A DNA stretch of 64,000 bases from assembly GCA_965248435.1 (NCBI GenBank), contig OZ252100.1, positions 3,328,001 through 3,392,000 on the forward strand. The letters are read 5' to 3'. Every line of letters begins with the position of its first letter. Positions within the stretch are counted from its first letter, which is position 1. A program made the position numbers and the translations under genes. The notes under the pieces are model-generated. The model was not told the origin of the DNA and did no database searches. It worked only from the letters and a program-made list of their open reading frames with translations. This stretch comes from Candidatus Latescibacterota bacterium. GTDB taxonomy: Bacteria; Latescibacterota; UBA2968; GCA-2709665. This document shows positions 4,972-41,633 of the stretch, one piece after another.

Positions 4972-7900
4972 ATGGGGTCCCTGAACCTGGCCCAGACCTT
5001 CGTGGGGACCTTCAAGGCCGAAGCCGACGTGGACCTCCAGGCAACGCTGACCGTCCCCGCCATCACGATCGACGATTTCGTCTTCGACTTTCCGTCTGTG
5101 TCGGCGATCTTCCACTACGACCAGGTCTTCGCTAACGCCAGCACGACCGGCGCCGGCAACAGTTTCGGCGGCGTTCCCGTCATCTCCTTCGAAGATGTGG
5201 AGATAGACCTCGGGGGGTTCATCACCGGGTTCGTCGGCCCGATCGTCGGCCAGATCGGCGACGTGATCGATCCGCTGCTGCCCCTCGTCCACGTGCTGAC
5301 GGACGAGATCCCCCTGCTGAAGGAGCTGGGGGCGTCGCAGACGAGCCTGATCGACATAGCCGGGACGCTCCTGGGTCAGACGAAGTACGCCGGCGTGGTG
5401 AAGGCGGTCGATGCCATCCTGGACTTCGTCCTCTTGGTAGAGAAAGTCGACGACTTCATCGACGCGTCGGGCGGCGGCCCCCTCGTGATAAGCTACGGCA
5501 GCTTTACCGTGGGCGGCGACGCCCGCAGCGGTGGCCAGGGTTCCCTCAATGTTGCCCCCCCGGCCCCGGGCACCACCCACGACCCGTCCGGCCAGTTGGA
5601 CAGTGGACCGAGCTCGACAAAGAAGGACAAGGCCAAGAGCGTCGTCAGCAGCTTCGGCACCACGAAGGGCAGCCTCCAGTTCCCGATGCTGAGCGACCCG
5701 CTTTCCGCCTTCGGTTTGCTCCTGGGCAAGTCCGTCGATCTCTTCATCTACGACCTGCCTGTCCTGAGCCTCGACTTCCAGTACGTCAAGTCCTTCCCCA
5801 TCTTCCCCGGACTCAACGCCCGTTTGGGCGGCGGAGTGTCGGCATCGACGAACTTCAGCTTCGGATTCGACACCTCCGGCTTCAACGAGTGGAAGGCTGG
5901 ATGGTCCGGGCCGGGAGGCAGCTTCCAGGCCAGCGACCTCGGCCAGCTCGGAACCGTTTTCAACGGATTCTTTCTCGACGACCACGGTATCGAGAACACC
6001 TCCGGCGATCAGCCTGAGGCGACCATCACCGCCTCGATCGTGGCCGGCGCCTCCGTGGGCATCGGCGGACTGATCGAAGCGGGAGTCGAGGGAACCATCA
6101 AGGCCACTATCGACTTCGATCTCAACGATGTGAAGAATCCCAATGCCTTCCCGGGATCAGGCATCCCCGAGTTCGACGGCAAGATCCGAGCCGAGGAGCT
6201 GATCGCGCGGGCCAACCAGGGAATCGAGTGCATCTTCGACACCCACGGGGCGCTCACCTTCGCTCTGGACGCCTTCTTCTGGGTGGGGGCCGACCTGGGA
6301 TTCCTGGGCAAGATCACGATCTTCGAAGCCCGAAAGAACTTCTTCTCCGCCACTCTGGCGGAGTTCGACCACGCCTGTCCCGACCTGGACATTCCCAAAC
6401 TGGCTCACATGAACGGCAGCGACCTGGTGCTGGACATGGACGGAGTGGTCGGACAGTCCGGATTCAGCGCGCTCGAAGACGACGATGGCAATCGGATCGG
6501 CGAGAGCTACAAGGTGGGGGTGCTGCAGCTACCGACGGATGTTGTCGTCGATGCGGACGGGCAGATCACGGACGGCGGCACTCTGGACGGCCCGATGGAA
6601 GACTTCGTCACGGTAGGCGCCCGCGGGTTCCTGAATTTCTTCAGGGCCAGCGGTGTGGACAGCGTCAGCACCACGGCAACGGCCTACGCCGACGAGATCC
6701 AGGTCGCAAGCAACGTCCAGGCAAATTTGAACCTGCACGGCGGTTCCGGTGACGATCACATAATGATCGACTCGGACGGCACACACTCCGTGGCCATCTT
6801 CGGTGACGACGACGACGACATACTGATCGGTGGCGCGTTCGCCGACACGATCGAGGGGGGTGCCGGAAAGGACAAGATCTACGGCCTCGGCGGAAACGAT
6901 ATCCTGAGGGGCGACGCCGGTCTGGATATCATCGTGGGCGGTCAGGGCAACGACGAGCTGCACGGTGGCAGCGGCGACGACCGGCTGGCCGGAGAAGAGG
7001 GCGCAGACAAGCTGTTTGGAGACGCCGGCGCCGATACCCTCACGGGTGGAAAGGGTGTTGATGAGGGCCGGGGAGGCACGGGAGGCGATACCTTCGTCTG
7101 GACATTCGGTGACGGCGCCGACTCGGTCTGGATCGGCGGTAATAGCACGGCGACGAACCCAGATGACCAAATCGAGTCACAGGAGCCCGATACGGCCCGG
7201 CTGATCGGGATCGTGCTCGACGAGAACATGCAGACGGTTCCGGTAGACGACACCGTCGGCCTTTCAGCCAACAGCGTCGACGTAGATGTCAGTTGGGGAC
7301 GTCCCGGGACCTCGACGAACGTCTACACACTCCAGGGGTTCGAGCGGGTGACGCTGGATTTGGCCGACGGGGCTGATGCCGTGACGATCGGGAATCTGGA
7401 CGGGACGACGGTGGGGAACGTCGACGTCGACTTCGGCGAGACCCAGCGGGAAGAGACCGCCGTAGTCGATATGGTAATCCGCGACGCGAGCGGCAATTTC
7501 GTCGACTTCATCTACGATCCCCGCGATCTGGATGCGAATGGCGACCCCAAGACCGTCCATGAGGTACTCGATGCGAATGGCGACCCTGTTCTTGATGTGA
7601 ATGGTGATCCGACATTCGAAACGAGAGCTGCGCGGATCCTGACGGAAGTGATCAAGACAACGCTGAAGGGCACTGACGGCCAGGCAGATACGCTGCTGCT
7701 GCTGGGGTCTTCCGGAGTGGATACGTTCGAGCTGACGGCAGCGGACGCCAATGCATTGGGGATCGACCAGTTCGTCGACCGGCCCGGCGGCGCCACGGGT
7801 GATCGTGTGCTGAGCATCCAGCTGGAGAACAGCGAGAGCGGGTTCGACCGGCTCGATATCCAGACACTGGGGGACGGCGACCGTGTGGATGCATCCGATG

Positions 7901-8880
7901 TCGTCGTGCGCCACCTGATCGTCCTCGGGATCGACACGGGGGCCGGTAACGACACGGTGATCGGCTCCTCCTTTGTTGACCACATCAATACGGGCGCCGA
8001 CGACGATACGGTCACGGGAGGTCCCGGGGTGGATCAGTTCGCCGATTCGGGCGGGGATGACACGCTGGTGGAGTCGCGGGACGTCCACTTCGACCTGAGC
8101 GATATCGAGCTGTCGATCCACACGAAGGCGGACAGCTACGGGATCAACAACACCCAGGTTACGTCGGGGACGCCGATCACGGAGAAAGAGAATATCGCCG
8201 GGCCCGGGTTGAACGGCGCGGGCGGTGGGATCTTCGAGACGATCCGGCTGACGGGCTACGACGATACTCGCGGGCTGGAGGGCGCGCTGAGCGAGAACAC
8301 CTTCACCGTGGACGATTTCACGATGACCGCGTTCCTGAACGGCGGCCCGGCCGACGACTTCTACGACATCATCCTCAGCGGCGGTGCGGCGGCACAGTTC
8401 AGTTCGGTGGTCTACATCTCCGACGACGGCGGCAAGGGGTTGGCCCACCTGCCGCAGGGCGCCGGCCTGGACACGCTGAATGTCGAAGGCACTGCAGTTG
8501 ACGATACGTTCGCGTTCGCGCCGCAACTGGTGGAGCGGTTGACGACGGCCGACGTTTCGCCCGGGGACGCCGGCTTCACGCCGATCACCGATTTCGGCAA
8601 TATCAGCACCGACCCGGTCGTTCGGTCGTTTGCGGCCGGTCCGGACGTGAGTCGGCAGACGGTGATCTACGGTGAGGGTATCGTGGAGGCGTTCGAGGTC
8701 CACGGCGGGTTCGGCGACGACATCTTCATCGTGGACGACAGCAGCACCGAGCTGTTCGTGTTCGGCGACAGCGGCGACGACGCCTTCTTCATCGGCAGTG
8801 TGACCGCCACGACGACGATCACCAATCCCGAGGATCCTCTGGGCCCCGGGATTCTGGTGGTTGACCGGACAAGCGGAGGG
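4972..8880 (+). CDS. Giant RTX-like Ca-binding secreted protein, segment 1 (5'-truncated, frameshift near 8870)
   Basis: Highly acidic Gly/Asp-rich ORF with GGxGxD nonapeptides (GGAGKDKIYGLGGNDILRGDAGLDIIVGGQGNDELHGGSGDD); begins mid-domain; ORF tail to 9045 is out-of-frame junk. Confidence 0.85.
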
Positions 8881-11800
8881 AGGCGGTATCACCAACGGCG
8901 TATCGTTCCCTGCGGAGTTCCGCGGAGGCAAGGGCAACGACTATTTCGAGGTGAACCACAACATCGCCGAGATTTCCTTGTACGGAGAGGACGGCGACGA
9001 CGTCTTCTTCCTGAAGGCGCATCTCACGACCGAGCCGGCCGATAACGATGATTTGCAGCCGCAGGAAGACATCGATGTCTTCAGCGAAGAGGGCGAGCGC
9101 GACGTCCTGGCCTACGTGAACAACGCGCCCGTGAACATTCACGGCGGGGCCGGCTTCGACACGCTGGTGATCGTGGGGACGTCGATAAGCGATACATTCA
9201 CCATCTTCGTCGAAGAGGTGAACGGCATCGAGGTCCAGCGCATCTTCGGCGCGGGTCTGACGGTCCCCAACATTACCGGCATCGAGCGGCTGCTGATCGT
9301 GGCGGGCGGCGGCGACGACATTATTAATGTATATGGCACGCTTGCAGACCAGGAGATCTCCGTTAACACGGGTGGCGGCAACGACACGGTCTTCCTGGGC
9401 GGCAACGAGATCAACTTCGACATCACGATCCCCGAGTCGAAGTATACGAAGGTCGAGACGGTCGAACGTCCCAACATCGTGATTCCGAACCCTCCGATCA
9501 TCATCCCCGGATTTCCCTATTACTCCACTCATTATTACTTCAGCTTCAACTTCTTCGGCAGACGGTCCTGGTCCTACAGGATCTGGCATTGGGCGCCGGC
9601 CATCGTTATCCCGATACCGGATACGATTATCCCGCAGGAACCTCTGGAGATCCCGCGGGTCGTCACGGTTCCCGAGTTCACTCTGCCGGTCTTTGTTCCA
9701 GAAACGCGCCAGCTCGTGGGTCTGCAGGGCCCGGTTTTTGTCGACGGCCAGGACACGGGGCCGATCCTTAATCCTGACGGTACTGTACTTCTCAGTGCGG
9801 GCGATGACACCCTCGTTGTGGACAACCGCTACGGCACACCACAGGCCCCGGGCTCCCTCGTGAAGATCGAGGTGGAGGTCGCCAAGATCAATCAGGTGGA
9901 TCCAGTAGATCTGGCCGAGGAGCTGGAAGCGGAGCTTGGCTTTGCGCCGACGCAGGCCCAGATCGACACCCGGGAGACGCAGCGGATCGCCGACGTGGCG
10001 AGCGCCAAGGCCATCCTGGCCGTGACCGCGCCCGCGGGCGTGGACGAAGAGACGGTCTACGGGCAGGTGGTGGACCATCTGCAGGACCAGAACCGGGTGC
10101 GCCAGCCGGGTATCCTGGACGCGATGGTGGCGGCCCCTGCCGGAACGACTGCAGTCACCCTGACCGACAGCGCGAAGATCGCCGACCATACTACGACCAA
10201 CGCCTTCGTCAGCGATCTGAGCGCTGAGTTCAGCACCAACGTGTCGCAGGGGAAGTGGGTCGACGCGTCCGACGAAGCCAACCCTCAGGATATCTTTTTC
10301 AACATCACGGCTTCATACATCAACACCTATCACCTGTTGTTCCCGAATGGCGTGTTCTCCTTCACCGCCGGCGGCCGCAACCTGGAAGCCGAGGTGATAT
10401 CGGATCTCGGCGGGAATATCATCCAGATCAACGTCTACACCGTCGACAAAGTCACGTTCGATCTGGGCAACGATTTCGTGAAGTCGAAGTTCGTGGACGA
10501 CGAATCCACTCGGACCTACGACACGATTTCGGGCTTCGGTTCAACGTTCGGAGTGTTTTACCAGAACTTCACGGCGGTGGACGTCCAGCTCTCCAGCCAG
10601 GTAGACGTACTGGAAGTGATCGACACGGCCGGGACAGATCAGAAGCCGACAGTAACCCGCATCTTCGCCGGCGGCGGCGGCGACACAGTGAACGTCCGTG
10701 CGGCCGGCGGCACGACGAACATTTTCGGGGACGTGAGCCCGACCTACAACGAGGACTTCCGGGTACACGCCGGGTCGACGACCCCCGCTCACCTGAAGAG
10801 CGCGCAGAATGCCGTCACGCTGGGCAACTTGCTCGGCCTGGGCGCCACCTTCGATCACGAGAACTCCACGCACGTGCGTGCGGTTGCGCAGCAGCTCCTC
10901 AACCGCGGCGTTTCGCTCGTGGATCTGGACGGCAGCGCGATTACGCTTACCAGCGACATCACCGACGTGGTCAATTTCGACTCGGACGCCTACCACGCAC
11001 AGATCTGGATCCTGTTGAAGGCCCACCTGAACGATCTGCAGGGAAACACCGGAAGCTACAAGGACTTCCTGGATGACCTCGGACCCTTCGGGTCGGAGTT
11101 CTCCACGAACCTGGCCACGCTGGTGTCCGGGTTCAACGCCACGGACGTCAGCAACCTGGACGTCGGGGACCTGAAGGCGCTGGCCACGGCGGTGAACAAC
11201 AAGGGCTACACGACGACGGTGTCGATCAAGACGGCGTCGACGGTGGGCCAGTTGAACAACTCGCTGGACGCATTCGCCGACGAGGTCTGGGATACGCTGA
11301 AAGACCTGACAACCAACGCCTCGCCGTTCGTCGCGACCACGGGCGACTGGCGGAGCCATCTGGCTTCCGTGGGAAGTGCTCTGGGCATCAGCGGGTCGTT
11401 CAATACATCGAGCCTGAGCCATCTGCAGACCCTGGCGAAGGAGGTCAACTCCCGTCAGTTCCAGGCGACCGTATCGATCGACACGTCCGATGAGTCGACG
11501 ACGTCGGCGACCTTCGACCGGTTGGATACCGACCTGGAGTTCACGTTCCAGACCTTCGTCTGGAGGTTGCTGAAGGAGAACCTGATCCACACCGGCGGAT
11601 CAGCCTACAACCCACTGGCTGATGTGGAGCAGGTTCCCAACGAATATCGTAACTACCTCCTCCAGCTGAACGCGGCACTCGGGCAGAGCGGGACGTTCAA
11701 TCCGAACAGCGTGATCCACCTGAAGACGCTGGGAACCGCGCTGAACAACGAGTTCCCCGCTCTGCAGATCGACGTTGCCGGCATCCAGCTGGTGCCGAGC

Positions 11801-14800
11801 CTGGACGTGAACGCCTATCGGGCAGAGGTTTGGGATTATCTGACTGCGAATGGCGTAGCGACGCCCACGGGCAACGACACGTTCAACATTCACAGCACCG
11901 CCAACCGGGTAGACGGCATCCAGGCAAACCTGACGCTGGACGGCCAGACGTCATCGGGCGACCTCGTGTTCGTGTCTCACACAGGAGACGGGAGCGATAA
12001 CGCCGCGACACTCACCGACGCGACGCTGACCGGCCTCGGGATGACGGGTGCCATACACTATAATAATGTAGAGATCCTGCAGATCGACCTGGGCAGCGGC
12101 GCGAACGAGGTGAACGTACAGAGCACTTCCGCGATTACAACCACGACGCTGAACACGAACGGCGGGGCCGACACGATCAACGTGGGGAGTCTGGCCCCCA
12201 CGGCGGGCGGCGTGGCCGACTTCATCAGCGGACGGCTGACGATCAACGCGGGCGGGGCGTCAGATACGCTGAACGTCTACGACTCCGGCGATGCGGGCGG
12301 CAACCACGGAAAGCTGACGTCGAGCCGGATCACCGGGCTGGGGATGGGTGTGCCCGAGGGCAATGGCTCAGGCCTTGACGACGGCACCCGCGGTATTACT
12401 TACAACTCCGTTCAGGATCTGAACCTGTTCTTGGGCTCGGGTGGGGATACGTTCACGATCGCGTCGACCCACGGCAGCCCGACGTTTCTGAGCACCGGCG
12501 GTGGAGCCGATGTCGTCAACGTTCAGACGATCGCTCAGTCGACGACGGTGGAGACGGATGGAGGTACCGACACCATCAACGTCGGCAGCGTTGCTCCCAC
12601 CAACGGCGGTACGGTCAACGGCGTCACCGGTCTGCTGACGCTCACCGGCGGCGGCCAGGTCGATACCATTAATGTGTACGACTCCGGCGAGGGGGCACCG
12701 AACACGGATGGTGTGCTGACGAATACGAACCTGACCGGCCTGGGCATGAGCCTGGGGATCGCCTACACCTCTGAGAACCTCAACATCCACCTCGGTTCGG
12801 GTGCAGACATCTTCACCATCAACAGCACCCACGCCGGGAGTACGACGCTGGCTGCCAATGGCGGGGCTGACCGCATCGACATCTTCGGATCCTCGGGGAC
12901 CGTTTCGGTGAGCGGCGGCGCCGCCGGCGATACGTTCAACGTCTACAATACGGCGGCGTCGACGCTGCTCCTGGAAGGTAATGCCGCCGGCGACACGTTC
13001 AACGTTCAGGCAATGGCGGGGATCGTGACGCTGCGTGGCGGGGCTGGTTCGGACCATACGAACGTCGGCAGCAACGCTCCTGGGGTAGTCGGCAACGTCG
13101 ACGCGATTGCGGGTCTGTTGGTTGTGGAAGGCGGCGGTGCCACGGACGATCTGAACGTGGATGACACCGGCGACGGCGACGGCGTTCTGGGACAACTTTC
13201 GTCGACGCGTCTCACCGGGCTGGGCATGGGCGGCGGGGACGCCGATGCGGCGCTTCTGAACGACGCCGCACACGGCATCACCTATTCAGCACTGGAGGCG
13301 GTCTCCATCGGACTGGGTTCGGGCGCCGACGTCTTCACGGTTCTCAGTACGCACGCTGGTAGTACCAATCTGGCTACAGGAGCCAATGTCGACGAGATCA
13401 ACGTGGAGACGATTTCGGGCCTGACGACGATCGACGGCCAGGGGGAAGCCGACACCGTGAACGTCGGCCGGACCTTTGGCGGCGGCGAGACGGTGAACGG
13501 CATCCAGGCGGCACTGATCCTGGGAGGCGGTGGTGGGGGTGCGAGCGACACGCTGAACGTGAGCGAGGCTGGAGAAGCGGCCGTCGCCACAGCTTCGGGC
13601 GAACTGACGGCGACAACCCTGACCGGCCTGGGCATGGCGGCCGCCGGCATCACCTACGGCACGTTCGAAGACCTGAACATCACGCTGGGTGAGGGCGGCG
13701 ACGACTTCACCGTGAGCAGCACCCACTCCGGCACAACGCAGCTCCAGACCGCAGGTGGATTCGATGACATCCGGGTCAAGACGATCGACGGGGCGACGAC
13801 GATCCTGGCCGGCGCCGGCGCAGACGACGTGATCGTTGCGAATAACACCGACCTGGTAGACGACATCGGCGGGCTCCTCGAGATCCAGGGCGAGGGCGGC
13901 GCCGATACGCTCAGGGTCGACGACAGCGGCGATAACGCCGGGACCGCGAAGCTGACGTTGTTCGGCCACGGCAGCGGGAACACAGGCACGCTGACGCCGA
14001 CGCAGATCACCGGCCTCGACATGGGCGGCAGTATCACCTACGGATCGGTCGAGTTCCTGGACATCCTGCTGGGCACCGGGGACGATCATTTCACGATCGT
14101 AGACACGCACGCCGAGACGACGACGCTCGACGCCGGTGCGGGCGATGACATTATCGACGCGCTCGACAACAGCGGGATGACGACGATCCTGGGCAACGCG
14201 GACGGTGATGTGGTCAACGTCGACACGCTGTCCACACTGGTCTCGAGCGACGAAAACGGCGACCGCAACACCCTGAGCATCGACGGTGAAACCGGCAACG
14301 ACACGATCCACATCCAGCTCACCGGACAGGGTGACTACGTGATCAACGCCACCGACTCCGGAGGAGACTTAGGTGACACGATCACGGTGGAGGGCACCGC
14401 GGCCGCCGATAAGATGCTGCTGCGGAAGAACTTCCTGGCCCTGCTGAACTCGTCCGACGAAGACGCCAACACCATCGCCGACGTGGAGCGGATCAATTAC
14501 GACGGCACGTTCGACGGCATCAGCCACACCGAGCAGGAGGTCATCGGTTTCCAGTTTGTCGTGCGGACAGTCACCATCCGGACCTTCTTCGGTTCCTTCA
14601 CTATTCCGTATGTTGACAGGGTGCCGGTGTTCGCAGACGTCGAAGTGATCGACGGCTACGGTCTGACCATCCTCGGAAACGCCGGCGAGGATTCTTTCTA
14701 TCTAGACGACAACGCGACCTCGACGCAGATCAAGGGTGGGGCCGATAAGGACACCTTCCAGATCGGCCAGATCTTCAACTCGGACCGCACTGTGAGCGAC

Positions 14801-15547
14801 GGCACGGGGAATCCCAGCACCGATTCAGGGATTGCCCCGGGTGACGAGATCTTCACGGTCCTGACGACCCGCGGCTACCTCAGCCGCGGAAACAGCTTCC
14901 GCACGGCGATCGAAGGGAACGCCGGGAACGACGAGTTTGTCGTTTACCACAACAAGAGTATCCTCGACCTGGACGGCAACGCCGGCGACGACCGATTCAC
15001 GGTCCGTGCATTCGCCCTGGTGAACGAGAATGAAGCGGCCCAGGCCATCACGAACCTGAGGGCGGGCGCCGGCCTGGACTACGTCGAATACACCGAGAAC
15101 GCGCTCGTCAACATCGACGGCGGCGACGGCAACGATACGCTCGTCATCATCGGTACCGAATTCGGTGACGCCTATGTGGTCCAGGCTGACCGGATCGTGG
15201 GAGCCGGCACGAACGTTTCTTACGAAGACATCGAAATCATTACCGTCGACGGCGCCGAGGGGAACGATTTCTTCTATATCGACAGTCTGAACGCGGGCGT
15301 CACAGCCACGGTCTTCGGCGGTTTGGGGAGCGACACGTTCGTTATCGGCGGTGAGGCCATCGACGTCGACACGGGCGAAGAAGATGTGAACCTGGGATTT
15401 GCCGCAGACCTGGCCAGGATTCAGGGTACGCTCAACCTCGTGGCGGGAACCACCGGGTCTTCCGTGGCCATCGTCGAGGCCGTGATGCTGCCAACGGAGA
15501 GCCAGGCGGCGACCCCTCCACCGAATCCGAACCCGAACTTCAGTTGA
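8861..15547 (+). CDS. Giant RTX-like protein, segment 2 (between two frameshifts)
   Basis: Continues segment 1 (ILVVDRT / EGGGITNGVSFPAEFRGGKGND); GxGxDT repeats and recurrent LTxxxLTGLGM units. Confidence 0.85.
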   Translation: MTGQAEGGGITNGVSFPAEFRGGKGNDYFEVNHNIAEISLYGEDGDDVFFLKAHLTTEPADNDDLQPQEDIDVFSEEGERDVLAYVNNAPVNIHGGAGFDTLVIVGTSISDTFTIFVEEVNGIEVQRIFGAGLTVPNITGIERLLIVAGGGDDIINVYGTLADQEISVNTGGGNDTVFLGGNEINFDITIPESKYTKVETVERPNIVIPNPPIIIPGFPYYSTHYYFSFNFFGRRSWSYRIWHWAPAIVIPIPDTIIPQEPLEIPRVVTVPEFTLPVFVPETRQLVGLQGPVFVDGQDTGPILNPDGTVLLSAGDDTLVVDNRYGTPQAPGSLVKIEVEVAKINQVDPVDLAEELEAELGFAPTQAQIDTRETQRIADVASAKAILAVTAPAGVDEETVYGQVVDHLQDQNRVRQPGILDAMVAAPAGTTAVTLTDSAKIADHTTTNAFVSDLSAEFSTNVSQGKWVDASDEANPQDIFFNITASYINTYHLLFPNGVFSFTAGGRNLEAEVISDLGGNIIQINVYTVDKVTFDLGNDFVKSKFVDDESTRTYDTISGFGSTFGVFYQNFTAVDVQLSSQVDVLEVIDTAGTDQKPTVTRIFAGGGGDTVNVRAAGGTTNIFGDVSPTYNEDFRVHAGSTTPAHLKSAQNAVTLGNLLGLGATFDHENSTHVRAVAQQLLNRGVSLVDLDGSAITLTSDITDVVNFDSDAYHAQIWILLKAHLNDLQGNTGSYKDFLDDLGPFGSEFSTNLATLVSGFNATDVSNLDVGDLKALATAVNNKGYTTTVSIKTASTVGQLNNSLDAFADEVWDTLKDLTTNASPFVATTGDWRSHLASVGSALGISGSFNTSSLSHLQTLAKEVNSRQFQATVSIDTSDESTTSATFDRLDTDLEFTFQTFVWRLLKENLIHTGGSAYNPLADVEQVPNEYRNYLLQLNAALGQSGTFNPNSVIHLKTLGTALNNEFPALQIDVAGIQLVPSLDVNAYRAEVWDYLTANGVATPTGNDTFNIHSTANRVDGIQANLTLDGQTSSGDLVFVSHTGDGSDNAATLTDATLTGLGMTGAIHYNNVEILQIDLGSGANEVNVQSTSAITTTTLNTNGGADTINVGSLAPTAGGVADFISGRLTINAGGASDTLNVYDSGDAGGNHGKLTSSRITGLGMGVPEGNGSGLDDGTRGITYNSVQDLNLFLGSGGDTFTIASTHGSPTFLSTGGGADVVNVQTIAQSTTVETDGGTDTINVGSVAPTNGGTVNGVTGLLTLTGGGQVDTINVYDSGEGAPNTDGVLTNTNLTGLGMSLGIAYTSENLNIHLGSGADIFTINSTHAGSTTLAANGGADRIDIFGSSGTVSVSGGAAGDTFNVYNTAASTLLLEGNAAGDTFNVQAMAGIVTLRGGAGSDHTNVGSNAPGVVGNVDAIAGLLVVEGGGATDDLNVDDTGDGDGVLGQLSSTRLTGLGMGGGDADAALLNDAAHGITYSALEAVSIGLGSGADVFTVLSTHAGSTNLATGANVDEINVETISGLTTIDGQGEADTVNVGRTFGGGETVNGIQAALILGGGGGGASDTLNVSEAGEAAVATASGELTATTLTGLGMAAAGITYGTFEDLNITLGEGGDDFTVSSTHSGTTQLQTAGGFDDIRVKTIDGATTILAGAGADDVIVANNTDLVDDIGGLLEIQGEGGADTLRVDDSGDNAGTAKLTLFGHGSGNTGTLTPTQITGLDMGGSITYGSVEFLDILLGTGDDHFTIVDTHAETTTLDAGAGDDIIDALDNSGMTTILGNADGDVVNVDTLSTLVSSDENGDRNTLSIDGETGNDTIHIQLTGQGDYVINATDSGGDLGDTITVEGTAAADKMLLRKNFLALLNSSDEDANTIADVERINYDGTFDGISHTEQEVIGFQFVVRTVTIRTFFGSFTIPYVDRVPVFADVEVIDGYGLTILGNAGEDSFYLDDNATSTQIKGGADKDTFQIGQIFNSDRTVSDGTGNPSTDSGIAPGDEIFTVLTTRGYLSRGNSFRTAIEGNAGNDEFVVYHNKSILDLDGNAGDDRFTVRAFALVNENEAAQAITNLRAGAGLDYVEYTENALVNIDGGDGNDTLVIIGTEFGDAYVVQADRIVGAGTNVSYEDIEIITVDGAEGNDFFYIDSLNAGVTATVFGGLGSDTFVIGGEAIDVDTGEEDVNLGFAADLARIQGTLNLVAGTTGSSVAIVEAVMLPTESQAATPPPNPNPNFS

Positions 15548-29054: not shown

Positions 29055-29297
29055 CGTCTCGATTCGTTAAGCATCTCACTGAAGCGGCAGAGTTCGGAAG
29101 CCGTGCCGTTTGCCGGTTAGGAACGGAACGGCTTCTTTTTGCCTGAATGGCTGGAGCGTGAAAGGTATAAATGGGTGTTGACTTGACGGGGTATGGCTGA
29201 TTATATTGGGACCCTGTCGGGTGGCAGAATCTCTTGTTGCAGAGCAGAATAGACATTCCAGACCCTGTTTCGGGTCCATTACGTGAAAGGAGTTTCG

Positions 29298-31951: not shown

Positions 31952-34099
31952 ATGGAAGAACAACTGACGAGTAGCTCGTGGTACCGCGTGGCAGAGACGA
32001 AGCCGCGGCTGAAGTCGCACGCCCAGATCCACCGCCACATCTACCGTGGACGAGACTGGTACGTGCTTCAAGATCACTCGAGTGGACGGTTCCATCGTTT
32101 CTCTCCGGAGGCCTATCTGATCATCGGGCTGATGGACGGAGGGCGGTCGCTGGGAGAGATCTGGCGCGCGGCCTGCCTCCGGCTGGGTGACGATATGCCC
32201 ACTCAGGACGAGGTCATCCGGCTGCTGTCGCAGCTTTACCGCGCCGACGTCCTCCAGACGGACGTGACTCCGGATATCGCCGAGCTCCTTGATCGGCAGG
32301 TAAAGACACGGCGAACCAAGTTGCTGAGCTATGTTCGCTCGCCGGTGGCACTTCGTTTGCCCCTGCTGGATCCAAACCGATTTCTGACCCGCACGAGACG
32401 TATGGGGAGGATGCTGTTCGGGCCGCTCGGGGCGGTGGCCTGGCTGCTCGTTGTGGTGCCCGCGTTGGTTCAGGTGGGCATCCACTGGGAGGCGCTGACG
32501 GAGAACATCATCGATCGCGCCCTGAGTCTTCAGAACCTGCTGGCGATTGCGCTGATTTACCCGATCGTGAAGGGTCTGCATGAGTTCGGCCACGGCTACG
32601 CCGTGAAGCGGTGGGGAGGCGAGGTCCACGAGATGGGCATGATGCTTCTGGTGTTCGTCCCGATTCCGTACGTGGACGCGTCTGCAGCGACGGCATTCAG
32701 GCAGCGCTATCAGCGGGTCCTGGTGGGGGCTGCCGGCATCCTGGTGGAGATGTTTCTGGCGGGGCTCGCTGTTTTCGTCTGGACATCGGTAGAGCCGGGG
32801 GGGATGCGGGCGACGGCCTACAACGTGATGCTGATCGCCGGCGTGTCTACCCTCTTGTTCAACGGGAACCCCCTTCTGCGGTTCGATGCTTACTACATCC
32901 TTTCGGACTTGCTGGAGATTCCGAACCTCGGCTCCCGCGGGACTGCTTACCTGAGCCACGTGCTTCAGGTCCGGGTGTTGGGTGTGGAAGGGCTTTCGCC
33001 TCCGGAGATGAGTGAGGGTGAAAAGGGGTGGCTGGTGATCTATGCTGTGGCTTCGCTGATCTACCGGACGTTTGTGATTGTGGCCATCATCCTTATTGCT
33101 GCCAGCAAGTTCCTGGGGCTTGGGTTGGTGATTGCCGCGTGGGCGGCTGTCGGAATTCTGTGGCAACCGCTTTCGAAGGCTGCAAAATTCCTGTCTTCGA
33201 ACGCGCAGGCCAGACGCCGGCGTGGACGGATCGCCGCAGTGTCTGGAGGTTTCGCCCTCCTGCTGGGGCTCCTGGTCGGTGCTGTTCCCTTCCCGCTGTT
33301 CACGGTGGCTGAGGGCGTCGTCTGGGAACCGGAGCGGTCGCGAGTCCGGGCGGAGTCCAGCGGGTTTGTGGTTCGACTTGAAGCGCTTCCGGGGAGTCGG
33401 GTGCGGAGCGGAGACGTGCTGATCGTGTGTGAAAATCCTGAGCTTTCCACGAGGACTCGCGTATTGGCTTCAAGGCTTGGCGAGTACGAGGCGCGTCACC
33501 GAGCAGCATTCATGGCAAACCTGACAGAGGCCGAGATCCTGAGAGAGGAAGTAGAGCGTGTACGGGCAGAACTGGCACGGGCAAGAGAACGGGAAGACGG
33601 GCTGAAGCTCCGGGCAGAGGCAGAGGGCCTGTTCCTGATCCGCGAGCCTGAGAACCTGCCCGGCAGCTTCTTGGTGAAGGGCACAGACCTGGGGTTTGTC
33701 GCCGATTTTCTCCACGTGTCGGCGCGTGTGGTGGTGGACCAGTCCGCGGTGAGCCGTGTGCGCCGCGACACCCGAGGGGTGGAAGCCCGGCTCGCGGGTC
33801 GACTCGATCGCCTTGTGCCAGCACGACTCGTACGCGAGGTACCGGCCGCCTCTACCGATCTGCCCAGCCCGGCGCTGAGCCTGCAGGGGGGCGGCGACTA
33901 CGCGGTGGACCCCCGTGTTCAGGGGGCGTCACCCCAGGCCTTTGAGCCGCTGTTCCAGTTCGACGTGGAATTGACGGAAGGGGTGTCGGGGCGTGTAGGA
34001 GAACGTGTTCACGTCCGATTCGAACACCCGCCCGAACCCCTGATGTTTCGCTGGTACAGAGGTGCCAGGCGCTTACTGTTGAATCAGTTCGATGTGTAG
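31952..34099 (+). CDS. PqqD-like domain / M50 (site-2) peptidase / HlyD-like fusion membrane protein
   Basis: N-terminal YVLQDHSSGRFHRF..LMDGGRSLGEIW..EVIRLLSQLYRADVL; LHEFGH (HExxH) and NGNPLLRFDAYY; multiple TM helices; C-terminal VRAESSGFV..PGSRVRSGDVLI lipoyl motif and coiled coil. Confidence 0.85.
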   Translation: MEEQLTSSSWYRVAETKPRLKSHAQIHRHIYRGRDWYVLQDHSSGRFHRFSPEAYLIIGLMDGGRSLGEIWRAACLRLGDDMPTQDEVIRLLSQLYRADVLQTDVTPDIAELLDRQVKTRRTKLLSYVRSPVALRLPLLDPNRFLTRTRRMGRMLFGPLGAVAWLLVVVPALVQVGIHWEALTENIIDRALSLQNLLAIALIYPIVKGLHEFGHGYAVKRWGGEVHEMGMMLLVFVPIPYVDASAATAFRQRYQRVLVGAAGILVEMFLAGLAVFVWTSVEPGGMRATAYNVMLIAGVSTLLFNGNPLLRFDAYYILSDLLEIPNLGSRGTAYLSHVLQVRVLGVEGLSPPEMSEGEKGWLVIYAVASLIYRTFVIVAIILIAASKFLGLGLVIAAWAAVGILWQPLSKAAKFLSSNAQARRRRGRIAAVSGGFALLLGLLVGAVPFPLFTVAEGVVWEPERSRVRAESSGFVVRLEALPGSRVRSGDVLIVCENPELSTRTRVLASRLGEYEARHRAAFMANLTEAEILREEVERVRAELARAREREDGLKLRAEAEGLFLIREPENLPGSFLVKGTDLGFVADFLHVSARVVVDQSAVSRVRRDTRGVEARLAGRLDRLVPARLVREVPAASTDLPSPALSLQGGGDYAVDPRVQGASPQAFEPLFQFDVELTEGVSGRVGERVHVRFEHPPEPLMFRWYRGARRLLLNQFDV

Positions 34100-34117: not shown

Positions 34118-35803
34118 GTGTCGCGACTGAAATATTCGCTGAAATCGTACCTGAAGATCGTTTGGGGACTTCTACCAGTTCTCCATATGACGCTCGGTCA
34201 GGCGTCGGGCGCCGAGACGCCGCGATACCGGAACGTGCGCGTAGACCTGAAGGCGGGCGCTTTTCTAGACCGGCTCCCGTTCGATGAGCCCTTCCTGGTT
34301 ACGGGCGAGGCGCCCGCTTCTACGAGGATGGTGGAGGCCCGATTCGACGAGTACCTCGAAGTGTTCGCCATAGGCGATGACCCGGGGGCCATTGGGCGGG
34401 TGAGGGAGGAGACGTGGGCCTTCCTGGACTCGGTACTGGTCCGAAGCGAGGGGACGGCTGAGTCACCTGATCTGCGTTGGCTCCAACGTAGACTGTCACA
34501 GATTGTCATGGAGACCGTGAGGCCTCCTTCCCGTTTGCGGAGCCGCGTATTTTCGAACCTGGCGCCCTGGAACTGGGGGGACTGGGGGATTCTGTTCCAG
34601 CACTCAGAGCCCGAATTGATCGCGCAGGGCTCAGTCCTTGACCTGGATGGTTTCCCGCAGTTGGAAGCGGCGCGGTTTGCGGGCAGGGTGGAATCAGCAC
34701 TGGAAGGCGTCGGTTTCGTGAGGGAGCAGGAACTGGACGGGCTCGTGGCGACGGTTGTGGAGGCGGCCAGAGAGGCCCGCATCGGTCTTCGGTCGGGTCG
34801 TGCTGAAGTGCGTCCCCCTTCCAGGTGGAACCGCCTGAAGGGCCTCGAACGGGCGGAAAACAACAGCGAAGGCGCTGGCCTAATTCCGCGATGGAACCGA
34901 CTGGAGGACTCGGGTGCCGAGTTGGAGCAGGGCGTGATTCCGTTCCAACTGATGGTAGCGCCACTGAACCCCGATCGCACCTATGTGGTCGGGTTCCTGT
35001 TCGAGCGGACTGTGACGAAAGGGGAAACGAACGCCTTTCGATCATCGGTGGAGAAACGGCTGGAAGAAGAGGGGATGGGTATGGGGGCCTGGAAGGGTGT
35101 AGGGGAGAAGGGTGAGCAGCTTCGGCTGGACCTGCTGGACTACATGGTAGCTGCCGCGGGCGGCGGGAGGGTCGCTGCCGAAGGGACACTGTTGGACCCT
35201 AACGTAGATTACTTCTACGTGTTTTCGTTTTTCACAGAGCTGGTGGACCGGGCCCACGGGGGGAACGAGGCCGTGAAGCAGGCGGCGTCAGACGTATCTG
35301 GGCTCGTGGAGGGAAGAAGGGTGACGGGGCGCTCGGCGGCGATCGCCTCGACCTCGGCCAATGATTACGTGAGTGCTGATGCCGGATTGCTTTACGCTGG
35401 TGAGATCAGTGAGTCTGTCTTCTACCTTGGTGCAAACTTCTATCTTCGGCCGGTGAACAAGCGAGTCCCCCTGAGCCGCCGAGGAGGGTTCACGCGGCGG
35501 TTCGCCTTCACGCTCGGCATCACCCTGCAGGGGATCGACGACGATGTCGGGACACGCGACAACCTGTTCCACACGCAATCAGTGATGATGGGGGCCGGAT
35601 ATCGACTTTCTCAGTACATCCGTGCAGGCACGGGTCTGCTCCTGTTTCGAGAGCGCGATCCGGAGACGTTTCCGCTTTCCGAAGACACGCGGCTGACCGT
35701 GACGCCTTACGTTTCGGTTTCATTCGATGCCGACGTGGGTAAACAGCTTCTTGGCCTGGGTGGCATTTTCGATTTCCTGAAGGACAATGATGAAGATTCC
35801 TGA
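34118..35803 (+). CDS. Hypothetical exported protein with beta-strand-rich C-terminal domain
   Basis: 561-aa ORF with RBS AAAGGAG, signal-like N-terminus (GQASGA), alternating strands FYLGANFYL, FAFTLGITL, GAGYRLS, PYVSVSFD. Confidence 0.65.
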   Translation: MSRLKYSLKSYLKIVWGLLPVLHMTLGQASGAETPRYRNVRVDLKAGAFLDRLPFDEPFLVTGEAPASTRMVEARFDEYLEVFAIGDDPGAIGRVREETWAFLDSVLVRSEGTAESPDLRWLQRRLSQIVMETVRPPSRLRSRVFSNLAPWNWGDWGILFQHSEPELIAQGSVLDLDGFPQLEAARFAGRVESALEGVGFVREQELDGLVATVVEAAREARIGLRSGRAEVRPPSRWNRLKGLERAENNSEGAGLIPRWNRLEDSGAELEQGVIPFQLMVAPLNPDRTYVVGFLFERTVTKGETNAFRSSVEKRLEEEGMGMGAWKGVGEKGEQLRLDLLDYMVAAAGGGRVAAEGTLLDPNVDYFYVFSFFTELVDRAHGGNEAVKQAASDVSGLVEGRRVTGRSAAIASTSANDYVSADAGLLYAGEISESVFYLGANFYLRPVNKRVPLSRRGGFTRRFAFTLGITLQGIDDDVGTRDNLFHTQSVMMGAGYRLSQYIRAGTGLLLFRERDPETFPLSEDTRLTVTPYVSVSFDADVGKQLLGLGGIFDFLKDNDEDS

Positions 35804-37168
35804 GTGCCTCCACCTGACACGTTTCTGCATCTTTTGGATGGTCGCATTGCTGCTGGTGCTTGCGCAGACGGCGTGCCACGACGCCGACAAATATGTACTG
35901 ACTTCTAACGAAGATTCGGTGGATCGGCTCTTCACACTGACGGTTCAGGGCGATACGACGCTTCCTGCGGACGGCTTTTCCAGCGTGTCTATTCTGGCGA
36001 CCGTGGCCGACGTTTCCGAAAGGGAGCATTCGGTCCTGTTCAGCACGACGGCGGGGGACCTGCGTGTGGGCTCCTCCGTCGTGGGGGATACCGCCGTGGT
36101 GGTGGCATCGCCTGACGGAGAGGCGCCGGTCGAATTGTTGAGCGCCCGGGTGGTTGCCACGGCCCGTGTGACGGCCCAGATCCTGGACGTAGCGCCCCCG
36201 CTTCGCCAGGAGGTGTCGATTCGGTTCGCTCCCGTAAACACCGGGGACGTCATCGCGTTTCTGGGGGCTCCCGATTCCGTGCTGGCCGACGGGAAGGAGC
36301 TCGTGACACTCCAGGTCAGGATCTCCCCAGACCTGCAGGGAGACGATCGGACCGTAGTGTTCGAAACAACACTCGGGGTGTTCCTGCTGTCGACCGGTAC
36401 GGGAAGCACGCGGATTGTGGAGGCGGACGACAACGACATCGCCACCGCGCGTCTTCAGAGCCCTACAGAAGGCGGTGAAGCGATTATTACGGCCACGGTG
36501 AGGGGGTTTCGGCAGGAGACGTCCGTCCTGTTCACCACGGTGGCCGCCGTACAGTTCGTGGAGGCCCCCGCAACCGCGCCTGCCGACGGCGCAACACTCA
36601 CCCGCCTGACGGTGGAGGTCGAAGTTGGGCTTGGAGGTAGCCAGAACAGGAGGTCGACTTCGAGACTACTGACGGTATTTTCACGTCATCGAATGCCCGC
36701 CGGGCCGTGGCCGTGGCGAATGCCGAGAACCTGGCGACGGTCTTTCTCCGCAGCCCCCCCAGGGTGGCCGACGCCGTGGTGACGGCTTCCGTCGCGGGGC
36801 TGTCACAGGATCACCTGATCCGGTTCCAGGTGGCGCCGCCGGACTCGATCATCGTGTTGATCGATCCGAGCAAGGTACAGCTGTCTGCGACCGACCAGGT
36901 TCAGGTGGACGCGGAGTTCCTCCGCCTGCCGGGCAGGGGTACCGTGACCCAGGACCTGAACGTTTTGTGGACAGCGGTGGACACGGTGGGTGCCGCCATC
37001 CCGCGCGCCTTCTTCTTCAATGTGACTCAGACCGACGCCCAGGGGTTGGCTTCGGCGGTGTTCCTCGCCGACAGCACGTCTTATCGCGGGCCGGTGACCA
37101 TCCAGGTCCGGCCCTCGGACTTCAACACCGGGGTGGAAGGTTTGGCGTTTCTTCGAATCGTTGACTGA
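35787..37168 (+). CDS. Lipoprotein with Big_1/invasin-like Ig repeats (frameshift near 36640)
   Basis: Lipobox LAQTAC; three units xPADGxS/xLADG/APADG..V.FxTTxG..G.A.V.L.S..A.ITA; reading continues EQEVDFETTDGIF in the frame of ORF 36707-37168. Confidence 0.7.
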
Positions 37169-37391: not shown

Positions 37392-37544
37392 GATTCACCT
37401 ACCGCGGACCTGATGGCTTTGAACGATGCGTTTCGCGAGTTTCAGCCGCTGGAAGGCGGCGAGTTCTACAAATAGCGCCTTTACCCTAACCCCAACATTC
37501 GAATGAAAGCCTTTTTTCCGACCGCAGGAGGCAAGGACTTAGAG

Positions 37545-38900
37545 ATGCGAAACTGGCGATCGATTTTCTGCCGCGGCTTCCGAATCGGGGTCTTCGCCAG
37601 CCTGTTTGGGTTCGCCTTGTCCGCACCGTGCTGCGCGGTAGATCTGGTGGGAGTATACCGCTCGGCGCTGAAGCACGACGCCCAGTTAGAGGGCGCCCGG
37701 TACACGAACCTGGCGTCGAGGGAAGGGCTGCGACAGGCGTTCTCCAGATTTCTACCCACGTTGACCCTGGACGCAGAGACAGGCGGCACCCATCAGAATA
37801 TCCGCAGCACTAACAATGACCTGTTCAGCCTGGGCAAATCTTTTTTCATGACGAGCCGCGTGTCCGTGACCCTGAATCAGCCGATTTACCGCCATTCGAC
37901 GCTGGTAGGCGTCTGGCAGGCTCGTGCCGACGTGAAACGGTCTGACCTGGAGTTGATGCAGGCCGAACAGGACCTGATACTGCGCTCTGCGAGGCTCTAC
38001 TTCTCAGCCCTTGCGGCGAGAGACGAGGTGACTTTCGCCGAAGCGGAACAGGCCTCGCTCGAGCGACATTTCGAGCTGGTCCAGGTACAGAAGGCGCGCG
38101 GTCTGGCGTCGATTATGGATCTCTACGAGGCCCGAGCCCGACTGGCTACCGTAGAGGCGCAAGTGATCGAGGCAGAGGACCTGTGGGACGACGCGATCGA
38201 GGCACTCCGGGAGCTGAACAGCCGCTTGGCCCCCGACCTCCGACCCCTGCGGGTCGAACTGCCGCTTGTGACTCCTCAGCCGTCCGATGTCGACGCGTGG
38301 ATCGAGCGCGCGGTCGAGGGAAACCTGAGACTAAAGGCTCAGGAACAGGCCGTGGAATCTGCCATGCAGGAGATCTCGCTCCAGAAGGCTGGGCGGATTC
38401 CGGCGCTGAATCTGCAAGCCAGGGAGAACCGGGAGAAGACGGGGGGCACACTGTTCGGAGGCGGAAGCGATGTGGAAACCGCAAATTTTATCGTCACGAT
38501 AAGCGTCCCGGTGTTCCAGGGGGGCTTTCTGGGCTCCCGCATCAAAGAGGCGAAGTACGCCCACCAAGCCGCGGTGCAGGAGCTGGAGCGGCAGCGGCGC
38601 GCGCTCAAGCGCCAGGTACGCTCGTCCTTTTTCGGTGTGACCCGGGCGATCAGCCGCGTGGCCGCGCTGGAGCAGGCCGTACGGTCTCAGGGGCTTGCCC
38701 TTGAGGCTCGCCAGGAGGGCTTCCGGTCGGGAATCGTATCCATCGTCGCCGTTCTGGACGCAGAGCGGGATCTGTTCGAAACGCGGCGCGACCACGCACG
38801 CGCACGCTACGAGTACATTCTGAACAGCCTTCTGCTGCGGGACACCGTTGGCCAGTTGAGCGAAGCCGACCTCCTGCAGGTCAATCGGTGGCTTCAGTGA
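37545..38900 (+). CDS. tolC: TolC-family outer membrane channel
   Basis: Signal peptide, DLVGVYRSALKHD, FLPTLTL, LNQPIY, YFSALAA, VPVFQGG, GFRSGIVSIVAVLDAERDLF, ARYEYIL; start 37545 or 37503. Confidence 0.9.
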   Translation: MRNWRSIFCRGFRIGVFASLFGFALSAPCCAVDLVGVYRSALKHDAQLEGARYTNLASREGLRQAFSRFLPTLTLDAETGGTHQNIRSTNNDLFSLGKSFFMTSRVSVTLNQPIYRHSTLVGVWQARADVKRSDLELMQAEQDLILRSARLYFSALAARDEVTFAEAEQASLERHFELVQVQKARGLASIMDLYEARARLATVEAQVIEAEDLWDDAIEALRELNSRLAPDLRPLRVELPLVTPQPSDVDAWIERAVEGNLRLKAQEQAVESAMQEISLQKAGRIPALNLQARENREKTGGTLFGGGSDVETANFIVTISVPVFQGGFLGSRIKEAKYAHQAAVQELERQRRALKRQVRSSFFGVTRAISRVAALEQAVRSQGLALEARQEGFRSGIVSIVAVLDAERDLFETRRDHARARYEYILNSLLLRDTVGQLSEADLLQVNRWLQ

Positions 38901-40902: not shown

Positions 40903-40907
40903 TCACC

Positions 40908-41633
40908 ATGAAACGTTTGGGCTGTATCTTTGCCGTTGGTTTTCTGTCGATGGCCGCGGGACCGGTGGATCCGGGGGTGGGACACGATGGTCTCATCGAA
41001 CCCTACGAAGTGGTTGAGCTGAGCAGTCAGGTCCCCGGCATTCTTGAGGAGGTGACTGTAGAACGGGGTGGAAGTGTGGAGAAGGGTCAGGTTCTTGTGC
41101 GACTCAAATCTGGTCTGGAAAGGGTCGCGGTCGATCGCGCTCGGGCCCAGCTGGAGTTTTCGAAGCGCCGAGCGGAACGGAACAAGGAGCTGTTCCAGAA
41201 GGAGCTCCTCTCTATCCACGAGCAGGACGAGATGGAGACAGAGATTCAGATCGCCAGGCTGCAGCTGAAGGAGGCCGAGGAGCGGCTCGCCTTGCGGACG
41301 ATCCGGAGCCCGATCCGCGGGGTGGTGGTGGACCGAACCGTGTCACCCGGGGAATACGTGGGTGACCGTCCAATGCTGAAGCTCGCCCAGATCGACCCGC
41401 TTAATGTCGAAGTCATTGTTCCCGTGACGCAGTTTGGATCAATTTTGAAGGGTATGACCGCGGAGGTCCTCCCCGAAGCTCCACTAAGCGGCGCCTACAC
41501 GGCTAAGGTGGTGGTCGTTGATCGAGTGATCGATGCAGCAAGCGGCACGTTCGGCGTGCGTTTGGAACTGCCGAACTCATCCTATCTCTTACCCGCAGGC
41601 CTGAAGTGCAAGGTTCGGTTTTTGAGGGATTAG
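40908..41633 (+). CDS. Efflux RND/HlyD-type periplasmic adaptor subunit
   Basis: Signal peptide MKRLGCIFAVGFLSMAA; VELSSQVPGILEEVTVERGGSVEKGQVLV, TIRSPIRGVV, VIDAASGTFGVRLELPN, PAGL. Confidence 0.88.
   Translation: MKRLGCIFAVGFLSMAAGPVDPGVGHDGLIEPYEVVELSSQVPGILEEVTVERGGSVEKGQVLVRLKSGLERVAVDRARAQLEFSKRRAERNKELFQKELLSIHEQDEMETEIQIARLQLKEAEERLALRTIRSPIRGVVVDRTVSPGEYVGDRPMLKLAQIDPLNVEVIVPVTQFGSILKGMTAEVLPEAPLSGAYTAKVVVVDRVIDAASGTFGVRLELPNSSYLLPAGLKCKVRFLRD

Follow-up and report, generated by a model that had tools for sequence, protein, structure and literature searches.

A probable secondary SecA_DEAD envelope module, decaying beside its putative giant cargo gene, in a Candidatus Latescibacterota genome

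A giant gene and an export-like cassette at one locus

The stretch of DNA analyzed here, called the window throughout, comprises 64,000 nucleotides (nt) from a Candidatus Latescibacterota bacterium (assembly GCA_965248435.1, contig OZ252100.1, positions 3,328,001 to 3,392,000 of the forward strand). The system in question occupies positions 4,972 to 41,633 of the window, where a giant gene with RTX repeats is followed by genes for a DUF3467 protein, an adaptor with GAF and HlyD domains (GAF-HlyD), a PqqD-like/M50/HlyD protein (M50-HlyD), a TolC-family channel, a shortened SecA and a small membrane fusion protein (MFP). The original prediction, made from the letters of the window, described these genes as a type I-like export system driven by SecA and devoid of an ABC transporter. 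Scans for open reading frames (ORFs) and with Pfam and NCBIfam profiles recovered every gene that it named, on the plus strand and at the coordinates of Table 1, together with two that it had passed over, encoding a 561-amino-acid (aa) protein and an Ig-like lipoprotein. The small MFP additionally matched the HlyD_D23 and Biotin_lipoyl_2 domains.

Table 1. Features of the cassette and the giant gene in the window (positions are those of the window; TM, transmembrane segment; IS, insertion sequence)
Feature	Position	Strand	Evidence
Truncated IS30-family copy, 786 nt	4179..4964	-	ORF 4208-4900 matches rve
Giant gene, piece A (frame 0)	4972..9045	+	RTX repeats; HemolysinCabind 68.3 bits
Giant gene, piece B (frame +1)	8861..15547	+	HemolysinCabind: no match
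Giant gene, piece C (frame +2)	15486..29054, first ATG 15648	+	HemolysinCabind 210.2 bits; 11 RTX stretches
DUF3467 small cytoplasmic protein	29283-29663; likely start 29298 after AAGGAG	+	PF11950, 86.7 bits
GAF-GAF-TM-HlyD adaptor gene, frameshifted	29792..31643; main ORF 30102-31643	+	GAF and HlyD domains (Pfam)
PqqD-like/M50/HlyD protein, 715 aa, gene intact	31952..34099	+	Pfam below gathering; NCBIfam daptide_HExxH
561-aa secreted protein of no named family	34118..35803	+	No Pfam or NCBIfam match
Ig-like (Invasin_D3/Big_1) putative lipoprotein, frameshifted	35787..37168; ORF 35787-36782	+	Pfam
TolC-family outer-membrane channel	37503..38900	+	TIGR01844 289.1 bits, cut-off 225.15
Shortened secondary SecA, 662 aa	38914..40902	+	SecA_DEAD, PP_bind and P-loop_SecA only
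Small secreted MFP (third adaptor)	ORF 40725-41633; likely start 40908	+	RND_mfp 129.5 bits, cut-off 94.9

A protein search with M50-HlyD gathered 42 related loci (28-56% identity) that span Desulfobacterota, Gamma- and Alphaproteobacteria, Nitrospirota and others, and across them the order giant gene, DUF3467, GAF-HlyD, M50-HlyD, SecA and MFP is nearly fixed. SecA is present in 40 of the 42 loci, one exception being cut by a contig end and the other (L044) having no SecA in a short 10-kb contig, so the short SecA is conserved with the cluster, a point on which the original prediction had made its reading depend. The small MFP, placed directly after SecA, and GAF-HlyD are each found in 40 loci as well. 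DUF3467 occurs in 32, with six of the ten loci that lack it cut by a contig end. Where at least 1,500 nt of room remain upstream (33 loci), a giant frame lies directly upstream of the module in 29; the giant is homologous to that of the window in 26 of the 33, and in three more loci (L028, L038 and L039) the giant frame, 1,997-2,564 aa in length, is unrelated and extends past the edge of the locus. RTX repeats are found in the L028 frame, PKD/He_PIG repeats in that of L038.

In the window, the genes for the 561-aa protein, the Ig-like lipoprotein and TolC are interposed between M50-HlyD and SecA, two genes that are immediate neighbors, SecA following M50-HlyD, in each of the other 40 loci where both occur. 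Neither the 561-aa protein nor the Ig-like lipoprotein has a relative across the 42 related loci, and both fall outside the conserved cassette. TolC is a different case. The ORF that immediately precedes the giant gene of G001 shares 37% identity with it over 428 aa (E 8e-95), a likeness which marks the window TolC as the channel belonging to the module, here relocated into the operon.

The giants themselves share features at both ends. In whole-genome searches, the LEPR-XLL leader model NF012209 scored above its cut-off in 19 of 21 genomes that carry the module and in none of 14 control genomes, and a comparison of coordinates places the match at the N-terminus of the frame abutting the module in 15 of the 21, where these frames are 5,434-19,211 aa long. 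The leader consists of a basic run followed by [FIVL][EQ]x[LMIF]ExRxL[LM]S[AD], a pattern that holds in 16 of 17 leaders, including that of a fragment from the window's own genome (see below), and none of the leaders has a hydrophobic Sec-type core. At the other end, a C-terminal tail of the form F..L..(6-8)..[RK][RK][FY]x[RK]W..G is common to 24 of 27 module-adjacent giants. It is present at the end of piece C in the window (28980-29054), where it reads FEALLERGAQSRFLRWDELSAEE, and no NCBIfam or Pfam model matches it in the window's giant protein. Alphaproteobacterial giants have other Trp-containing tails. This RRFxRW-type tail could be a second export or anchoring signal.

No ABC or RND pump was found among the 29 window ORFs scanned, as the original prediction had held for the locus. 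The genome has 50 matches to PF00005 (ABC_tran), none of them in the window, and the nearest on either side are ~186 kb (left) and ~158 kb (right) away; likewise, no ORF in any of the 42 related loci combines a Walker A motif with LSGGQ. Among models of the classical type I secretion system (T1SS), those for the ABC protein and the adaptor reached their cut-offs nowhere in the genome: the best scores were 424.7 bits for the ABC model TIGR01846 (cut-off 725.55), 236 for the ABC model TIGR01842 (cut-off 510.15) and 44.1 for the adaptor model TIGR01843 (cut-off 208.65). Nine ABC exporters in the genome do match TIGR01846 at E <= 1e-40. On TIGR01843 the adaptors of the window score 42.8 and 37.6 bits, and they belong to the MFP family. 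Of the parts of a classical T1SS, a TolC-family factor is present, while a HlyB/PrtD-type ABC protein and a TIGR01843 adaptor are not.

This combination of genes has a published counterpart. By computer analysis, Kamneva, Poudel and Ward 2015 (PMC4452313) found secondary SecA_DEAD proteins that have no wing/scaffold domain. The passages of that paper on gene neighborhoods describe such genes as adjoining genes for GAF+HlyD, weak-M50+HlyD and HlyD/Biotin_lipoyl proteins, with OEP sometimes present and ABC never, and its proposal assigns ATP hydrolysis to SecA and the membrane pore to the M50 protein. The window shows a second, wingless SecA beside the housekeeping SecA of the genome, the same kinds of neighbor proteins and no ABC gene in the locus. 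On this domain content, the window core (GAF-HlyD, M50-HlyD, wingless SecA and small MFP) is in all likelihood the 'secondary SecA_DEAD' module of that paper. The mechanism put forward in the original prediction, in which SecA acts as the ATPase, M50 as the gate and the MFPs as the bridge to TolC, coincides with this published hypothesis; our results support it in outline and refine it.

Decay of the window copy, its probable displaced front and its origin

The three giant frames are one gene, broken by frameshifts near 8861-8866 and 15542. The last ~60 codons of piece A are out-of-frame junk that begins where piece B opens, and at 15545, where piece B stops, the frame of piece C has already opened. 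In runs X1 and X3, which represent one sample and possibly the source sample, read contigs of 16,092 nt show no difference from the window across 4935-16600, and for this reason the frameshifts are not assembly slips. A relative in run X5, from another study, has two extra bases after 15542 that join frames B and C, and an X6 contig that covers 8711-8976 is shorter than the window by one base, the difference expected for an A-B junction without the frameshift. No homopolymer or slippery run was found at the shift sites.

The giant gene is also truncated at its 5' end. Residues 47-683 of piece A align to residues 4044-4737 of the 10,156-aa G001 homologue, NF012209 matches none of the giant pieces, and no LEPR motif occurs in any window frame. 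The 5' end of piece A (4965) abuts the truncated inner end of an IS copy, and the junction at 4964/4965 lies inside the X1/X3 contig. That copy is internally truncated and 99.6% identical to an IS at C1:2838973-2840027. It belongs to an IS30-family element (~1,060 nt, with an HTH_38 + rve transposase) of which the genome carries 31 copies with a length of 1,029 nt or more; their identity of 98.6-100% suggests that the IS expanded recently in this genome.

Further damage lies downstream. The GAF-HlyD gene is frameshifted near 30245-30262, with its N-terminal 154 codons (29792-30256) in one frame and ~460 in another; six single-ORF GAF-HlyD homologues of 618-645 aa are split over these two window frames in tblastn alignments. 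The Ig-like lipoprotein gene is frameshifted near 36636-36645. The giant substrate announced by the original prediction is thus present as RTX frames but not as an intact gene, being leaderless, IS-truncated and twice frameshifted, and GAF-HlyD, whose GAF and HlyD domains were matched, is likewise encoded by a gene split over two frames. M50-HlyD, SecA, the small MFP, TolC and DUF3467 remain intact. Taken together, the system is decaying in this strain.

A candidate for the lost 5' part was found elsewhere in the genome. The sole NF012209 match (C1:2848454-2848516, 37.1 bits) lies in a minus-strand fragment of about 2,872 aa at C1:2839991-2848609 (L055:9991-18609), ~490 kb from the window. The fragment contains DUF4347 and nine RTX stretches, and its leader reads ...SRRRMVFEPMEPRILLSADP. 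Its last eleven codons are the right end of a full IS copy, no continuation was seen beyond the IS, and the conserved C-terminal tail is absent. The GC content and third-position GC (GC3) of the fragment are 63.9/80.0, in agreement with the window pieces (62.0-63.7/78.9-82.6) and unlike the genome GC of 56.6. The IS copies at the fragment and at the window are in inverted orientation. We consider it probable that this fragment is the missing front of the window's giant gene. The present arrangement would then have arisen by IS insertion into the giant gene and, subsequently, by inversion of ~490 kb between oppositely oriented copies and a small deletion. The GC skew switches sign at ~2.95-3.0 Mb, within the putative inverted segment, which is compatible with an inversion and proves nothing. 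It changes sign again near 0.2 Mb, and the window lies ~0.35 Mb from the 2.95-3.0 Mb switch. The tail of the fragment is built of tandem ~46-aa units that are up to 92% identical.

The distribution of the module bears on its origin. Of 168 genomes of the phylum, 4, that of the window included, encode relatives of M50-HlyD (E <= 1e-30), with 29-41% identity; homologues from Desulfobacterota and Gammaproteobacteria reach 46-56%. Neither the module nor pieces of the giant were found in 30 closer relatives. The aconitase encoded in the window is 76-79% identical to those of Candidatus Latescibacterota genomes. The rarity of the module in the phylum and its absence from the closer relatives indicate that the locus was almost certainly acquired by horizontal transfer. 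A quick IQ-TREE of 39 M50-HlyD rows leaves the window without a well-supported sister (SH-aLRT 80 with L045) and names no donor.

The genes past 41713 are unrelated to the cassette, comprising LigD_N, a methionine-synthase-like protein and then central metabolism. Directly 3' of the cassette is a stand-alone gene for a LigD 3'-phosphoesterase domain (41713-42111, 143.9 bits), and a strong terminator-like hairpin follows it at 42200-42231. An Rfam scan of the window gave no matches, and the number of promoter-like sites in the window was not above chance (2 found, 1.9 expected). Within the cassette, the Atlas neighbors of the 561-aa protein are unnamed Bacteroidota clusters, with weak leads to outer-membrane protein barrels at 0.81, and the protein is possibly an outer-membrane barrel.

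Machine parts, proposed mechanism and rival readings

M50-HlyD matches PqqD at 17.8 bits, Peptidase_M50 at 19.1 and HlyD at 22.6, all three below Pfam gathering. Its residues 18-403 are closest to maturation proteases of ribosomally synthesized and post-translationally modified peptides (RiPPs), namely NCBIfam daptide_HExxH NF041824 (E 1.4e-44, 152.8 bits, cut-off 300), with YydH/LiaK at E 5.8e-06. Across 39 M50-HlyD sequences H210, E211 and H214 (HEFGH), N306, P307 and D312 are invariant; this HExxH...NPxxxxD pattern is the zinc site of site-2 proteases and is flanked by transmembrane segments, as in M50 peptidases. The protein has about six hydrophobic segments in residues 159-445, followed by the adaptor part, which is the only part to match solved chains by sequence profile (MacA, HlyD, EmrA and LipC). 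The PqqD-like N-terminal head has its weak Pfam match and is absent from the solved-structure profile matches. Since the zinc site is invariant, M50-HlyD is most probably a conserved protease and not merely a gate or plug. The membrane domain from which the original prediction made an inner-membrane gate is there, but the idea of a gate and nothing else does not hold.

The alignment of the window SecA with a 778-aa solved SecA chain covers residues 20-604 of that chain and then stops. Across solved SecA chains of 778-841 aa the alignment ends at about residue 604, and no SecA_SW Pfam match was found in the protein, which sets it apart from a canonical SecA translocase. By domain position, we take it to contain nucleotide-binding domain 1 (NBD1), the preprotein cross-linking domain, NBD2 and the start of the scaffold helix, and presumably to lack the wing, the two-helix finger and the C-terminal tail. 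Its Walker A motif, DEAD box and arginine-finger region are invariant in 30 sequences. The housekeeping SecA, encoded at C1:4.03 Mb, is 35% identical to it. Of the ATP-driven push that had been ascribed to this SecA, the ATPase is upheld by the invariant motifs, but a push of the canonical kind is not expected from a protein without wing and two-helix finger. In one Maritimibacter locus (L016:12105-13670), the ATPase after M50-HlyD is a 522-aa frame with a SecA_DEAD match of 24.6 bits, barely at the cut-off, and 23% identity to the window SecA, a very divergent or decayed motor.

DUF3467 is the most conserved part of the cassette, with 31-75% identity across 35 copies in related loci and 8 invariant columns, and the copy in the window is the only one in its genome. 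Its structure model has three strands and a helix (pLDDT 73.9), and a sequence search found no solved relative. In VIA-align comparisons the best Z was 4.8, for COMM-domain chains, followed by Pur-alpha/PC4 at Z 3.4-4.0, values within the range of unrelated small folds. A SecB-like chaperone role was considered and is unsupported, Foldseek having given no match at E <= 0.001 (best PC4-like, E 0.1). Some loci hold extra DUF3467 copies and also proteins of 363-397 aa (L027:2319-3407, L028:6125-7315 and L033:12682-13815) in which a DUF3467 domain at the N-terminus precedes a C-terminal part without assignment.

We put at roughly 0.6 the probability that the window holds a horizontally acquired, decaying secondary SecA_DEAD/type-I-like envelope module together with its cargo gene, a module whose mechanism we infer for its intact relatives as follows. 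A giant adhesin-like protein would bear a basic leader with FExLExRxLLSAD (LEPR-XLL) at its N-terminus and an RRFxRW-type tail at its C-terminus. The leader would be captured by the cytoplasmic PqqD-like head of M50-HlyD, and the unfolded chain would be clamped and fed through by the wingless SecA-type ATPase. The chain may cross the inner membrane by way of an assembly of the membrane parts of M50-HlyD and GAF-HlyD, with the leader removed by the M50 zinc site, and the periplasmic parts of the three adaptors would bring it to the dedicated TolC. Once outside the cell, the RTX or Ig repeats would fold, driven by calcium, and keep the chain from sliding back. DUF3467 may be a small cytoplasmic accessory, and the GAF domains may gate the machine.

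Several observations weigh against parts of this reading. The mechanism is drawn wholly from gene neighborhood, motifs and domain content. The PqqD and M50 matches in Pfam fall below gathering (17.8 against 23.4 and 19.1 against 27.2), and SecA presumably lacks the parts that engage SecY and push, which makes a role as translocation motor uncertain. Four of the 33 loci with room upstream (L004, L008, L026 and L044) have no giant there, and 6 of the 21 module genomes have no adjacent LEPR-XLL match. DUF3467 scored above its cut-off in control genomes of Thermus thermophilus, Bacteroides thetaiotaomicron and Methanosarcina acetivorans, so its family extends beyond the module and is not specific to it. 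The frameshifts in the GAF-HlyD and Ig-like genes are taken from the assembly, read confirmation being limited to the giant gene. As for the displaced front, no homologue bridges the fragment tail and the head of piece A, either piece is present in 0 of 30 relatives, and the fragment tail has no similarity to residues 3300-4043 of G001 or to the head of piece A. Since no homologue spans the join and the IS copy is truncated, so that more sequence may be lost, the argument for the join is circumstantial.

Other readings of the same genes were weighed. One that we regard as unlikely is a two-step route, in which the wingless SecA would deliver the giant to SecYEG at the inner membrane while M50-HlyD, GAF-HlyD, MFP and TolC would process the leader and take the chain across the outer membrane. 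It fits with the normal SecA kept in the genome, and mycobacterial SecA2 acts through SecYEG. It also fits with passages of a 2026 preprint on the LEPRxLL giants of a green sulfur epibiont, according to which, without the partner cell, the symbiosis proteins are retained in the periplasm of the epibiont (10.64898/2026.03.19.712371). It is hard to reconcile with leaders that have no hydrophobic Sec-type core and with a SecA that ends at about residue 604 of the 778-aa solved chain, before what we take to be the two-helix finger and the wing; moreover, no secY paralogue appears among the blastp-assigned ORFs of the 42 loci, where no family-level secY search was made. It is quite improbable that the module is an accessory, with the giants leaving through an unlinked ABC-type T1SS and the SecA/M50 set serving quality control, leader removal or regulation. 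RTX repeats are typical of T1SS cargo and the nine genomic ABC exporters resemble TIGR01846 (best 424.7 bits), but nothing in the genome reaches the cut-offs of TIGR01846, TIGR01842 or TIGR01843, the 42 loci hold no ABC-type ORF, the ABC pair near the 2.84-Mb fragment has no adjoining adaptor, and the module is accompanied by its own TolC and three adaptors.

We give very little credence to a small cargo, for which the PqqD-like/M50 protein would be a RiPP-type leader peptidase-exporter and the giants would be neighbors for some other reason. Although the best named relatives of M50-HlyD residues 18-403 are the RiPP maturation proteases daptide_HExxH and YydH/LiaK, and the Pfam PqqD match is weak, the conserved leader is carried by the giants themselves and the cassette has no conserved small precursor gene besides DUF3467, which is far too conserved to be precursor-peptide-like. 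There is also a slim chance that the locus still functions in this strain, with the frameshifts read through or the pieces made as separate proteins, and with the 2.84-Mb fragment as an independent cargo. M50-HlyD, SecA, MFP, TolC and DUF3467 are intact with their catalytic motifs in place, an in-frame ATG at 30249 could yield a GAF-TM-HlyD protein, and the 2,872-aa fragment retains its leader. Against this stand shift sites without a homopolymer or slippery run, a relative with an unshifted frame at 15542, a fragment that lacks the conserved tail and ends in IS-derived codons, and window pieces that are leaderless.

Returning to the SecA_DEAD module as an export machine in its own right, we tentatively suggest, at somewhat less than even odds, that the cassette constitutes a secretion system of its own, independent of ABC transporters and serving the largest proteins of bacteria. 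The leader would be docked by a head like a RiPP recognition element (RRE), the chain would be threaded N-terminus first by the wingless SecA through M50-HlyD/GAF-HlyD into a duct of three adaptors and TolC, the leader would be clipped in passage by the intramembrane protease, and the RRFxRW tail would act as a second signal for stop, anchor or release. If this is true, the broken copy in the window is a natural record of the loss of such a system after horizontal transfer. For proteins of 5,000-19,000 residues that cross two membranes without ABC or a Sec signal, the module is the best genomic candidate. The window adds an example from Latescibacterota and a case of decay, and the checks made here add the strict conservation of the protease and ATPase sites and the finding that the giants have in common both a leader at the N-terminus and a tail at the C-terminus. 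Because the copy is decaying, this strain is a poor experimental model; isolates with intact loci include Litoribrevibacter euphylliae KCTC 52438 (locus L045), where the order is TolC, a 10,156-aa LEPR-XLL giant and after it the cassette, and Ferruginivarius sediminum WD2A32 (locus L038).

Comparison with known systems

Compared with the locus type described by Kamneva, Poudel and Ward (PMC4452313), the window has the same four core proteins, and the passages on mechanism propose the same roles for SecA and M50. The words DUF3467, RTX, giant and cargo are absent from the main text of that paper, and Latescibacterota lies outside the phyla covered in its relevant passages. The present analysis adds tests of the association with LEPR-XLL giants, of the C-terminal tail and of the invariant protease site, and the window copy is broken. 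In our literature searches, with subscription journals outside their coverage, no experimental paper on the module and no paper tying it to LEPR-XLL giants was found. External support comes from the 2026 preprint (10.64898/2026.03.19.712371), whose passages describe the expression of LEPRxLL giants of the green sulfur epibiont and their arrival at the partner cell, together with a TolC gene between those giants and the co-expression of an acquired secA. Its authors propose a sap-like T1SS, and the SecA_DEAD module is not mentioned in those passages.

The module resembles the T1SS for giant RTX adhesins in its design of an envelope-spanning adaptor with TolC, and in a giant, repeat-rich, calcium-binding cargo without a Sec signal whose gene adjoins those of the machine. 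T1SS examples that export giant RTX adhesins are LapA with LapBCE and SiiE with SiiCDF. Unlike these, the module has a SecA-type motor and an M50 protease in place of the ABC transporter, as well as three different adaptors, and its cargo carries a conserved N-terminal leader and a C-terminal tail, whereas the C-terminal signal of T1SS cargo is loosely conserved.

With peptidase-containing ABC transporters (PCATs) and the M50/HExxH leader peptidases of RiPPs, the module would share a putative leader-recognizing, leader-cleaving domain built into an export or maturation machine. It differs in that M50-HlyD scores 152.8 on the daptide model NF041824, below the cut-off of 300, in that its cargo is thousands of residues long and not a peptide like those of the NF041824 and YydH/LiaK (NF058609) enzymes, and in that its protease is fused to a periplasmic adaptor and a SecA-type ATPase would be the energy source. 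Like the accessory SecA2 of Gram-positives and mycobacteria, the window SecA is a second paralogue, apparently for few special substrates. The NCBIfam SecA2 models match it at E 1e-139 to 1e-183, all below their cut-offs; it ends beyond NBD2, once the scaffold helix has begun, and it is tied to TolC and adaptors in bacteria with a double membrane.

A final parallel is found in the passages of West-Roberts et al. 2023 (10.1101/2023.11.21.568195) on wingless SecA domains embedded in giant proteins of Omnitrophota and Actinobacteria. In both cases a SecA DEAD domain with a preprotein-binding domain, and without scaffold or wing, is associated with the export of giant proteins. There, the SecA domain lies inside the giant itself, among type II-like neighbors, whereas here it is a separate 662-aa protein in an operon with TolC and adaptors.

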